Assembly: GCA_019243005.1 (NCBI GenBank)
Contig: JAFAUY010000332.1
Location: 1-46,559 of the forward strand
Reading direction: 5' to 3'
DNA from: Verrucomicrobiota bacterium
Lineage (GTDB): Bacteria; Verrucomicrobiota; Verrucomicrobiia; Chthoniobacterales; JAFAMB01
DNA length: 46,559 nucleotides
Shown: positions 5,928 through 8,333 of the stretch, one piece after another
Layout of the letters: each line of letters starts with the position of its first letter
Numbering within the stretch: position 1 is the stretch's first letter
Made by a program: the position numbers and the translations under genes
Notes under the pieces: generated by a model
Told to the model about the DNA's origin: nothing
What the model saw: the letters and a program-made list of their open reading frames with translations, nothing else
Databases searched by the model: none

Positions 5928-8333
5928 ATGCACGCCTTTGCGCGAAAACCGAAAAAATCTCCCGGGCCAGGTGCCCCCGGCGTTGCCCGGCGTATGGCGG
6001 GAACGCCTGGATCAGGTGGCCGCGAGCATCCCAGCCTTCAGCCGAAACTGCCGCGCACGTGCGTATGCGGTCATGCGGCGGGTATGTCGGGAGAATGCGA
6101 GGCGTGCAGCAAGAAGAAGCGATGGGGCCTCCAAACCGGGTTCGCGGTCAACAAACGCGGTGATACTTACGAGCAGGAAGCGGACAAGGTAGCCGCCCAG
6201 GTGCTGACAAGGACGGCGTATCCCTCCCTTACCAGCGCACCGCCACGCATCCAGCGCCTCTCAGGAGAACCGAACGGGCCGGTGGTTAGGGCTCCCGCCG
6301 GTGTAGCCCAAGCCCTGGCCAGTCCGGGCAGACCCTTGGAATCTGGGTTGCGACGGGACATGGAGCAGCGCTTCGGCCAGGACTTCAGCCAAGTGCGGGT
6401 GCATACGGATGCGAAATCGGCAGAGTCAGCGCGAGCGGTTAACGCCCGGGCTTATACTGTCGGGCGTGATATCGTCTTCGGGGCCGGTCAGTATGCCCCG
6501 GAAACTGAGACCGGCCGTCGTCTGCTCGCCCACGAACTCGTGCATACGACGCAGCAAAGAGGCGGCGTCGTGCGCGTGCAACGGGCCGGGACCCCGGCGG
6601 GTGGTTGCGCCGCCAAGGCCGACACGGTGGACGAACAGAAAGACGAGGCTTCCCTCGCCGGCAGGCTAGCCCATCAGCAAATTCAGAGTTTCTTCTACCC
6701 GCAACTGGAGTTGGAGGTTGAACTCCCGCGAGGTACCAAAGACAATAGGGACCGACGGTGTCCTCCTCCCCACAGAGACAAAGGCCAGATCGACCTGTGG
6801 GAATATAAGGCAGGGCACGCACAAATCGGAGAAATCAAATCCGTCACGGGTGCAGGGTACGGGGAGAAAGACGTGCTGCACTACATCAGACGTTTCTATC
6901 AGCTGGTGAGTCGCATGACGGGCGGTGAGTGCAGCGAGAAGGAGGGCGACGAGGAGGATGTGAAGTTTGACCAGGGGCACCTGGAAGGCGACTTGACCAG
7001 TCATCGTCGTGTACCCGAGCCCAGACCGCTTGATAGTATCGTGCCGACGGTTGAGACCGACCTCGGTCCCTTTATGGGTGATCCCGAGAACAAGGTGCTA
7101 CGCTGCAAGCTGAAGCCGGCCGGGGTGGTCGTTTACTGGTGCAACAAGAAGAAAAAAAGGGAGGACGAAGACCAGAAACAGTCAGAGGCCGCCCGGTTGG
7201 CTATGCGGGTGGGGCAGGAAGCGGCCAGGCGGGTAGAAAAGAGAGCGGTCGAAAAGTCCACCGAGAAAGCCGCGCAGACGGTCGCAAAGGCAGAGCAGGC
7301 CACGGCGAAAGCCGCACAGGCTGGCGCCAAGGCGGAGCAGGCTGCTGCAAGAGCCGCGCAAACGGGCCTGAAGGGAGAGCAGGCTGCCGCCAAGGCTGCG
7401 CAGGCGGCCGGCAGAGCCGAGCAGACCACCGTGAGAGGCGCGCAGGCAACAGCTAAGGTGGAGCGGGCTGCCACGACGCGTGCGTTGGGATCGGTGGCCA
7501 GTTGGGGCCGCGTCAGTCCCTTGGAGGCGGCGATGTTTTATCTCGACCTCCATGCGGCCCATTTTGCCGCGCTGGAACAGGTGAGCAAGAGTGTGGAGAT
7601 CGCCAATGACTTGCTGAGTCGCATTGGGGATTTTGAGACTGGGGCACGCAAGTTGAGGGAAGCGGTCAACGCGCAACGAAATGCCGAGGCCGATTTGCCC
7701 CCGGAGCCGATAACAACGGACGAACAGGGGCCGGTCGTAGTCAGCCTCGATGAACTTGAGTTCGTCGACAAGTACTCGACCGCCGCTGCGAGAATCACTT
7801 CCGACGCGTTCGACGCGCGGGTCAAATTGAATAAAATCATCGAGGGGTGGGATGCGGTACTGGCTCAAGGCAAGGAGACGGGCGATTTCACTCGCAAAGC
7901 TATCTGGGAGGCCATCACGGAACTCGACTTGCGCTTCTCCAAAGAAAAGGGCGGCAGCTTCCGCGGCTTCCTGGTCGAGGCCCGCGACGACGCCGGGCGC
8001 GTAGAGGCCTGGGCCCGGCAGAAGTGGTATTCTGCGAAGGATATTCTCGAAACCGCAAATCTGCCTCTCATGAGGGTGATGAAGTTCACGCACGATGAGG
8101 CAGGCGCAATCAGAAACGACCTGATAGCCACGGCAAAGATTGGCGGCGCGACCGCCGGGATGCTCGTTGCCATCGACAGTTTGCAAGACGCCCTGCAAGC
8201 GACTGATCCCGCGGCAGCGCTCCAGGCTGTAATAAAGAGCCTGGACGTTCTACCCTTCGAGAATACCCCTCGGTACTGGCGTCTCCGGGCCTTGCAACAA
8301 AGACTCGAGGATTTCCTGCAGACGGCAGGGTAG
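5928..8333 (+). CDS. DUF4157 (HExxH metallopeptidase-like) domain protein with PD-(D/E)xK-like segment, charged tandem-repeat spacer and a ~320-aa C-terminal region of unknown function; effector/toxin-like
   Basis: Cys motif CVCGHAAGMSGECEACSKKK, then DTYEQEADKVAAQVL. DUF4157 core: LESGLRRDMEQRFGQDFSQVRVHTDAKSAESARAVNARAYTVGRDIVFG...LLAHELVHTTQQ. Then GRLAHQQIQSFFY...GQIDLWEYKAGHAQIGEIKSV (D ... E-x-K spacing). ATG at 5928 preferred over TTG at 5907. Confidence 0.85.
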   Translation: MHAFARKPKKSPGPGAPGVARRMAGTPGSGGREHPSLQPKLPRTCVCGHAAGMSGECEACSKKKRWGLQTGFAVNKRGDTYEQEADKVAAQVLTRTAYPSLTSAPPRIQRLSGEPNGPVVRAPAGVAQALASPGRPLESGLRRDMEQRFGQDFSQVRVHTDAKSAESARAVNARAYTVGRDIVFGAGQYAPETETGRRLLAHELVHTTQQRGGVVRVQRAGTPAGGCAAKADTVDEQKDEASLAGRLAHQQIQSFFYPQLELEVELPRGTKDNRDRRCPPPHRDKGQIDLWEYKAGHAQIGEIKSVTGAGYGEKDVLHYIRRFYQLVSRMTGGECSEKEGDEEDVKFDQGHLEGDLTSHRRVPEPRPLDSIVPTVETDLGPFMGDPENKVLRCKLKPAGVVVYWCNKKKKREDEDQKQSEAARLAMRVGQEAARRVEKRAVEKSTEKAAQTVAKAEQATAKAAQAGAKAEQAAARAAQTGLKGEQAAAKAAQAAGRAEQTTVRGAQATAKVERAATTRALGSVASWGRVSPLEAAMFYLDLHAAHFAALEQVSKSVEIANDLLSRIGDFETGARKLREAVNAQRNAEADLPPEPITTDEQGPVVVSLDELEFVDKYSTAAARITSDAFDARVKLNKIIEGWDAVLAQGKETGDFTRKAIWEAITELDLRFSKEKGGSFRGFLVEARDDAGRVEAWARQKWYSAKDILETANLPLMRVMKFTHDEAGAIRNDLIATAKIGGATAGMLVAIDSLQDALQATDPAAALQAVIKSLDVLPFENTPRYWRLRALQQRLEDFLQTAG
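7245..7475 (+). repeat. In-frame 42-nt (14-aa) tandem repeat array, 4 clear units plus degenerate flanking units, inside the DUF4157 gene
   Basis: Units from 7287: aaggcagagcaggccacggcgaaagccgcacaggctggcgcc / aaggcggagcaggctgctgcaagagccgcgcaaacgggcctg / aagggagagcaggctgccgccaaggctgcgcaggcggccggc / agagccgagcagaccaccgtgagaggcgcgcaggcaacagct. Peptides: KAEQATAKAAQAGA, KAEQAAARAAQTGL, KGEQAAAKAAQAAG, RAEQTTVRGAQATA. Confidence 0.9.

Follow-up and report, generated by a model that had tools for sequence, protein, structure and literature searches.

A DUF4157 protein from a Verrucomicrobiota bacterium joins a RecB-like candidate nuclease domain to a second, helical domain family

We analysed a 46,559-nucleotide (nt) stretch of DNA from a Verrucomicrobiota bacterium (contig JAFAUY010000332.1 of GenBank assembly GCA_019243005.1; hereafter the window), and in it the gene at positions 5928–8333 of the plus strand, which encodes a protein with a DUF4157 domain. 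This protein appears to be a unique chimera. Behind DUF4157 it carries a middle domain with invariant residues of PD-(D/E)xK type and, after a charged linker and a repeat spacer, a helical C-terminal domain, and it alone combines these two modules. With a probability of about 0.5, we read it as a modular DUF4157 cargo or effector of an extracellular contractile injection system (eCIS), born by recombination of two DUF4157 lineages within the charged linker. The N-terminal region and the DUF4157 head have the sequence character typical of eCIS cargo; the C-terminal domain comes from a family that adjoins eCIS operons or lies in DUF4157 arrays in five of five contexts; and the middle-domain family occurs nowhere but immediately after DUF4157 and shows an invariant H...D...ExK...HY...R set. 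The modules of the protein, and the basis on which each was assigned, are as follows.

5928..6332, plus strand: N-terminal region, residues 1–135 (composition)
6057..6107, plus strand: cysteine knuckle C45-x-C47-G ... E-C57-x-x-C60 (read directly)
6333..6566, plus strand: DUF4157/eCIS_core (PF13699), residues 136–213 (E = 9.9e-34, 115.8 bits against a cut-off of 22)
6591..7142, plus strand: middle domain, residues 222–405 (profile family, RecB motif alignment and fixed spacing after DUF4157)
6672–6674, 6792–6794, 6831–6839, 6879–6884 and 7134–7142: key residues of the middle domain, H249, D289, E302-I-K304, H318-Y319 and Y403-W-C405, respectively
7143..7265, plus strand: Lys/Glu/Arg-rich charged linker, residues 406–446 (composition)
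7266..7475, plus strand: ten Ala-rich heptads KA(A/E)Qxxx, residues 447–516 (Tandem Repeats Finder (TRF) and sequence reading)
7476..8330, plus strand: C-terminal domain, residues 517–801 (homologues, AlphaFold and genomic contexts)

The middle domain represents a genuine family that had not been described. Searched exhaustively with HMMER, 1.84 billion representative proteins yielded 92 clusters (at 50% identity), 42 of them at E < 1e-10 and 18 at E < 1e-30. Conservation was counted on the 78 sequences that span the whole domain. G286, D289, E302, K304, Y319, R329, D344, Y403 and C405 are invariant (78/78), while G245, A248, H249, Q251, P267, R268, K271, H318, R322 and W404 are at least 96% conserved, with H249, Q251, R268 and K271 kept in 76 of the 78; the window protein has every invariant and near-invariant residue. 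A first-pass annotation, made by a model from the letters of the window, had pointed to an Asp followed 13 residues later by E-x-K, and the strings that it quoted are all present (GRLAHQQIQ, G245–Q253; GQIDLW, G286–W291; IGEIKSV, I300–V306; DVLHYIRR, D315–R322). The spacing is exactly 13 in the window protein (D289 to E302) and 12–15 residues in the family, with a mode of 13, and the invariance of D289, E302 and K304 in 78 sequences lifts the pattern beyond chance. The domain also contains a cysteine set consisting of C227, C278, C335 and C405. C227, C278 and C335 co-vary, occurring together in ~47 sequences and being jointly missing in ~24, which suggests a joint role. Because the proteins are presumably cytoplasmic, that role is probably as a metal site.

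Genes for the middle domain are very rare in reference genomes: subfamily patterns located one locus among 185,579 species representatives and two in JGI metagenome contigs. In one locus (L080) the gene adjoins another DUF4157 gene and a Tox-HNH-HHH gene, and in another (L081) it adjoins a restriction-modification pair; neither has eCIS genes within 10 kb. An open reading frame (ORF) that looked conserved downstream in both loci was dismissed, the loci being ~80% identical throughout and the ORF being Arg-rich and resembling a wrong reading frame. A middle-domain match in locus L003 was likewise a spurious tblastn extension, the protein there diverging after DUF4157. A word-indexed homologue search was empty, whether the query was the middle domain by itself or a 25-sequence alignment, despite the existence of a close relative (P0047) and the 92 exhaustive matches, and is not read as absence. 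With its N-terminal half, the middle-domain profile further picks up DUF4157 proteins from a Nitrososphaeraceae archaeon and a gammaproteobacterial metagenome-assembled genome (MAG) (E = 4e-7 and 8e-6), and very weakly Grimontia species (E = 0.07–0.3). These divergent matches (loci L076, 10368–11309; L014; L068, L069 and L072) hint at a wider, more divergent distribution.

Comparison with E. coli RecB and nine other RecB sequences supports the view that the invariant residues form a PD-(D/E)xK-type set resembling the RecB nuclease site motif by motif. Motif I, AGRLAHQQIQ (family consensus AGxxAHxQIQ), corresponds in an alignment by eye to RecB AGTFLHSLFE, which is, from RecBCD structures, the motif of the metal-binding His956. 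Motif II, GQIDLW in the window protein and GFADLW in the family, corresponds to RecB GFIDLV, and motif III, IGEIKS, to LLDYKS, with an identical spacing of 13 residues between the Asp and the (D/E)xK; the RecB residues concerned are D1067, D1080 and K1082. Motif IV is HY..R after the ExK strand, against QxxxY in RecB, so that an aromatic/Tyr helix is present in both. The secondary structure predicted by an AlphaFold model from two sequences (predicted local distance difference test (pLDDT) 40) is alpha-beta-beta-beta-alpha, and the PD-(D/E)xK core fold is alpha-beta-beta-beta-alpha-beta. In hhalign, the family aligned with the 10-sequence RecB nuclease alignment at a score of 19.9, above all 60 column-shuffled controls (mean 12.0, sd 2.1, maximum 18.1; z ~3.8). 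The confident stretch lies solely on the catalytic hairpin, placing GfaDLw...IgEIKs onto GfIDLV...IvDYKS. Weak matches were also obtained to PHROG 1706, ‘CRISPR/Cas system associated’ (3 of 25 members, best E = 0.005), and to PHROG 1674, ‘exonuclease’ (1 of 25 members); the PHROG 1706 matches were not recovered in a repeat scan with 10 full-length members. No Tox-REase profile was matched at E ≤ 10 by the 25 members, hhalign against lambda exonuclease gave no signal, and tblastn against phages with one family member returned only noise. Considered together, these comparisons make a PD-(D/E)xK fold moderately probable for the middle domain, and nuclease activity plausible. The PD-(D/E)xK-like core proposed in the first-pass annotation thus gains a conserved domain and a RecB-like motif set, but no significant profile or structure match.

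The C-terminal domain, which extends over ~285 residues rather than the 320 originally assigned to it, is a second undescribed family. It is common to 45 proteins at 52–63% identity, nearly all of which have the order DUF4157, variable linker, C-terminal domain, without the middle domain. AlphaFold, given a 35-sequence alignment, returned a confident all-helical model (pLDDT 83.7) with nine helices, the first of 59 residues. Pfam contained no match to the domain, and Foldseek searches of the model against PDB and BFVD gave nothing significant (best E 0.05–0.2, template modelling (TM) score < 0.31), so that no known structural family was found for it in these databases. An apparent likeness to tape-measure proteins and pore-forming toxins, at Foldseek E of 0.05 or worse and TM < 0.31, was discarded as generic helical noise. 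The conserved polar residues (H542, H545, E550, E570, R577, D653-F-T-R656, D667, R686-D-D688, R691, E693 and K699) could belong to an enzyme or to a binding surface.

Genomic context links this family to eCIS. Two members (P0027 and P0046) come immediately after genes for gp25, CIS_tube, Phage_base_V, Tail_P2_I and DUF6519; a third gene (P0039) comes after a DUF6519-containing operon of eCIS type; and in two further cases (P0013 and P0020) the gene ends an array of 4–5 DUF4157 genes. All five contexts thus put the family either at the 3′ end of an eCIS operon or inside an array of DUF4157 genes. The region that had been called helical but unplaceable is indeed modelled as helical, and the suggested search for homologues and their neighbours has given it a place, in a family tied to eCIS loci or DUF4157 arrays. 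In all five contexts the next genes are opposite-strand housekeeping genes, which means that the C-terminal-domain family, too, lacks a downstream immunity gene.

Some relatives of this domain differ in arrangement. P0039 (L083, 10001–11395) has no DUF4157; it carries another N-terminal domain with a D...ExK-like hairpin, NKIDLFMKEYNLGIELKLS, followed by (AEGKIAG)n repeats, so that the C-terminal domain is here, for a second time and independently, paired with a nuclease-like motif. Its N-terminal domain had no significant match in the PDB. In a Verrucomicrobiae MAG (L003, 13531–13983), a degenerate and truncated C-terminal domain, with 64% identity to residues 628–739, lies ~2.5 kb downstream of a DUF4157 gene and looks like a decaying cargo gene. 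Two contigs (L077, 2407–11650; L084, 1–11737) each hold four to six tandem DUF4157 genes with differing C-termini and no structural eCIS genes within 10 kb; these arrays look like cargo ‘cassette’ islands.

The two families do not otherwise meet. The middle domain is present in none of 46 C-terminal-domain proteins, and the C-terminal domain in none of the 92 middle-domain representatives. Homology to the middle-domain lineage, represented by P0047 (49% over residues 41–416), stops at residues 416–450, and homology to the C-terminal family starts at ~441–517. Since one lineage ends and the other begins there, the Lys/Glu linker is the likely recombination joint between the two parental architectures. 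The linker (17% K, 17% E, 14% R) and the 14-residue repeats behind it were both correctly described in the first-pass annotation: ten heptads alternate to give a 14-residue super-period, with TRF periods of 21, 42 and 63 nt at 7258–7472. We read the heptad array as a helical spacer. Its equivalent differs among homologues, being Gly-rich in some and the (AEGKIAG)n repeat in P0039.

The position of the middle domain relative to DUF4157 is nearly constant. Across 75 proteins, the distance from the end of DUF4157 to the motif-I glycine has a median of 32 residues (interquartile range 30–34.5), the value for the window protein being 32, and the only family members without DUF4157 are N-terminally truncated gene calls. 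Because the spacing is fixed and the exceptions are only such truncated calls, the middle domain is an obligatory extension of DUF4157. The sequence behind it is not conserved. We grouped 84 such tails into 17 unrelated clusters, and hhalign of 28 pairs, drawn from the seven largest tail clusters and the window C-terminal domain, found 27 of 28 unrelated. The three largest clusters (54 of the 84 tails) have one to five strongly hydrophobic, membrane-spanning helices. In most of the tails of P0052–P0139, a highly charged K/R/E/D stretch comes right after the YWC motif and before hydrophobic helices that reach Kyte-Doolittle values of up to 3.8 over 19 residues; these tails may serve in membrane anchoring or in membrane insertion. 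The nearest relatives of the window middle domain (P0050, P0051 and P0060) have a charged or repeat linker and an unrelated helical domain.

The head of the protein fits eCIS cargo. The DUF4157 domain recognised in the first-pass annotation is a clear member of PF13699, a family now named ‘eCIS core’, and its HExxH motif is H202-E-L-V-H206 (6531–6545). The region before it is basic and 37% Ala, Gly and Pro, and is presumed to be a disordered eCIS loading signal; it includes a conserved GDxYEQEAD helix, and alignments with homologues start in it between residues 5 and 68. Within this supposedly disordered region, the four-cysteine knuckle may be a small zinc-binding element. The CxCG...ECxxC motif is also found in P0047 and in the DUF4157 protein of L003 (9746–11032). 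More broadly, a CxCG...(D/E)ECxxC knuckle upstream of DUF4157 recurs in several lineages, and ‘LQRK’ precedes it in relatives.

The gene itself is a single intact ORF of 801 codons with an ATG at 5928 and a stop at 8331–8333; a Shine-Dalgarno-like GAGGTG lies 6–11 nt 5′ of the ATG. Alignments with homologues begin at residues 5–15, which makes 5928 a better start than M53 of the automatic gene call (P0001, 749 aa); that call is probably too short. The record P0001 is a singleton cluster from one contig in a collection of 5.8 billion clusters. On the same strand, the upstream genes encode a DUF4241 protein, an NPCBM-methyltransferase and a double GT2 glycosyltransferase, the last ending 49 nt before the ATG. 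Downstream, the next genes are on the opposite strand, as had been noted, starting with a DUF1360-like gene, and the next credible plus-strand gene is the GH18 gene at 9991. No same-strand gene lies directly downstream and no plausible immunity gene follows, in agreement with the first-pass annotation. Two ORFs, at 8425–8706 (minus) and 8573–8875 (plus), were rejected as genes, their sequence reading as non-coding junk, and the small downstream ORFs were ruled out as immunity candidates by their sequence character and lack of conservation. Beyond the DUF1360-like gene lie genes for GH18, isoamylase and sedolisin, a purine-catabolism cluster, transporters and others, and the flanking genes are ordinary chromosomal genes. 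Three further features of the surroundings are given below.

8796–9212, minus strand: ORF with a DUF1360-like membrane protein
12546–13223, plus strand: isoamylase/GlgX-like part 1, CBM_48
13054–14562, plus strand: isoamylase/GlgX-like part 2, alpha-amylase catalytic and C-terminal domains

The isoamylase/GlgX-like gene is thus split between overlapping plus-strand ORFs in different frames (12546–14562), which may reflect a frameshift, a pseudogene or an assembly error. The purine-catabolism cluster (20478–29787) encodes uricase, an Asp/Glu/hydantoin racemase, a polysaccharide deacetylase-like protein, allantoicase, ureidoglycolate lyase and XdhC, together with a single-chain xanthine dehydrogenase of 1295 aa that has the Fer2, FAD and both MoCo domains in one polypeptide. 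This enzyme shares 60–66% identity with proteins from Chthoniobacterales and other Verrucomicrobiota MAGs, by which the window can be assigned to soil Verrucomicrobiota; its nearest relatives are in Verrucomicrobiota and cyanobacteria.

From these results, we suggest how a recombined eCIS cargo of this kind might work. The Ala/Gly/Pro-rich N-terminus would direct the protein, in unfolded form, into the lumen of the tube of an eCIS whose genes lie elsewhere in the genome. Once injected, the RecB-like module would act as a metal-dependent phosphodiesterase that cuts target nucleic acid, with the metal held by H249, D289 and E302 and with K304 as the catalytic lysine. The four-cysteine site may stabilise the middle domain, and the heptad helix would keep the C-terminal helical domain apart as a second effector or a targeting module. 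The producer could be safe without an immunity gene through sequestration, through an inactive state before delivery, or because the targets are non-kin and possibly eukaryotic.

Several results weigh against this proposal. No single argument for a nuclease is statistically strong: the hhalign comparison with RecB corresponds to P = 0.02–0.04, and hmmsearch with --max ranks RecB 123rd of 4676. The nuclease-fold match that profile and structure searches might have supplied did not appear, as the 25 middle-domain members matched no Pfam family at E ≤ 10, the full-length protein matched no nuclease family in Pfam or, at E ≤ 1, in NCBIfam, and a PDB profile search with the middle domain matched no chain. 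The two-sequence AlphaFold model of the middle domain is unusable, and its Foldseek matches, Rad50 and portal noise, were discarded. An active DNase without immunity in the producer would be hard to reconcile unless it is regulated. Genomically, the 46.5-kb window contains no sheath, tube, spike, gp25, baseplate or AAA gene, within a scope that includes only 5.9 kb upstream of the DUF4157 gene; phmmer of the window found neither another DUF4157 gene nor any relative of the structural eCIS genes from L078 and L083; and the gene may be co-transcribed with the upstream glycosyltransferase gene. Finally, an internal, constant module with variable tails is the reverse of the classic position of a toxin domain. 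The claim that the nuclease-like core is the toxin domain therefore has a precedent in fusions of DUF4157 to PD-(D/E)xK domains but is weakened by this constant internal position, and the tails become its serious rival for that role.

The main alternative, which we consider distinctly less probable, takes up this point: the middle domain would be a constant accessory of DUF4157, serving in processing, activation, metal binding or nucleic-acid tethering, and the polymorphic tails would be the effectors. The fixed distance after DUF4157 and the 17 unrelated tail clusters, the largest three with strong membrane-spanning helices, are what it would predict; a conserved head with a variable tail is the logic of polymorphic toxins, and 44 other proteins, in eCIS cargo positions, have the C-terminal domain on its own after DUF4157. 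Against this, the invariant H/D/ExK/HY/R set and the RecB-like motifs point to catalysis and not to scaffolding, and most DUF4157 cargo proteins do without the middle domain. We also know of no accessory function of DUF4157 that needs a phosphodiesterase. It is rather unlikely, though conceivable, that constant module and effector coincide. DUF4157 and the RecB-like domain would then form a fixed head of zincin and nuclease whose C-terminal tails (membrane bundles, helical domains and the present C-terminal domain) are swapped, as a reversed-polarity class of polymorphic effectors: the nuclease would serve as a constant payload and the tail would decide entry or targeting, for example by membrane insertion that carries the nuclease across, and the window protein would be a hybrid with the effector domain of a second eCIS cargo family.

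We similarly doubt that the D...ExK pattern is convergent and the middle domain another fold, such as a Cys-stabilised metal-binding domain or a peptidase. Profile and structure searches that are all negative or weak would be explained, as would the invariant Y-W-C405 and the co-varying Cys triad, which are not standard PD-(D/E)xK features; moreover, the regular expression for the RecB motifs was drawn up after the fact. Convergence would, however, have to reproduce four motifs in RecB order with an identical D-to-(D/E)xK spacing, a matching predicted order of secondary structure, an hhalign score above 60 of 60 shuffled controls exactly on the catalytic hairpin, and the weak PHROG matches to CRISPR/Cas-associated and exonuclease families. 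A role inside the producer, as a defence or abortive-infection nuclease or in DNA processing, with the DUF4157 head merely inherited, seems unlikely to us. It would suit a window in which eCIS genes were not found, relatives that adjoin restriction-modification (L081) and Tox-HNH-HHH (L080) genes with no eCIS genes within 10 kb, and the C-terminal membrane anchors of many relatives; but DUF4157 is strongly eCIS-specific (odds ratio 2614; PMC8213781), and the C-terminal family lies beside eCIS operons or in DUF4157 arrays in five of five contexts.

With the modular eCIS cargo as the preferred reading, two unannotated DUF4157-linked modules are now defined: a rare nuclease-like domain, and a helical domain that matches no solved fold. 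The invariant residues of the nuclease-like module (H249, D289, E302 and K304) can be mutated directly. Should the nuclease reading be true, the family would comprise DNase or RNase effectors with no immunity partner and an unusual internal position, and would bear on how eCIS producers avoid self-poisoning and on the function of DUF4157. In addition, the chimera marks the charged linker as a recombination joint, which would be useful for engineering eCIS cargo.

Among known systems, the protein is most readily compared with the eCIS-associated toxins (EATs; Geller et al. 2021) and with Cgo1 and Cgo2, which are cargo of AlgoCIS. DUF4157 is the core marker of eCIS; it stands on the N-terminal side of toxins, frequently with long linkers, and immunity genes are missing for many of these toxins (PMC8213781). 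More than half of predicted eCIS toxins carry DUF4157, most of these without another annotated domain, and 88% of EATs are encoded within about 10 genes of an eCIS operon (PMC11297309). In AlgoCIS, tube loading needs the disordered N-terminus and not DUF4157, and NTD-DUF4157-CTD, with DUF4157 between N- and C-terminal domains, is a described architecture of eCIS cargo (preprint 10.64898/2026.05.27.728243). The window protein shares with these toxins the low-complexity N-terminus, DUF4157 with HExxH, the long linker, the variable C-terminus and the frequent lack of an immunity gene, and the homologues of its C-terminal domain lie at the 3′ end of eCIS operons. It differs in that no eCIS gene accompanies its own gene in the 46.5-kb window, whereas those homologues do adjoin eCIS operons, and in that DUF4157 is followed by two structured modules, both from undescribed families.

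The nuclease-like module also has parallels among toxins and other nucleases. BaCT is a PD-(D/E)xK DNase toxin that is sometimes fused to DUF4157 (PMC7073777), and the middle domain resembles it in its candidate domain type, in its invariant ExK and in its location behind DUF4157. BaCT, by its published description (PMC7073777), is set apart as a C-terminal and nearly Bacteroidetes-only domain followed by a BaCTic immunity gene, whereas the middle domain is internal, lacks an immunity gene downstream and occurs in Verrucomicrobiota, Actinomycetota and other metagenomic lineages. The PoNe DNase toxins (PMC6688995) are similar in being polymorphic-toxin PD-(D/E)xK domains recognised only by motif and secondary structure; their Kx3GE...GIDx2Y...Yx3ExK signature is absent from the middle-domain consensus, however, and no PoNi (DUF1911/DUF1910) gene is present. 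With the RecB, AddAB and Cas4 nucleases, the middle domain has in common G-x3-H-x3-(E/Q), G-F-x-D-L, the 13-residue interval, (D/E)-x-K-S, an aromatic/Tyr helix and accessory cysteines that flank the core. Unlike them, it gives no significant profile match and has a much shorter segment between motifs I and II; its cysteines (one N-terminal, two internal and one C-terminal) differ from the C...CxxC...C iron staple of Cas4 and AddB; and it is attached to a zincin-like domain rather than to a helicase. Thus, the window protein belongs to a known kind, the DUF4157 effectors, and what is new in it are two undescribed domain families, a nuclease-like module that is internal and constant, an orphan location and a fusion that is unique.

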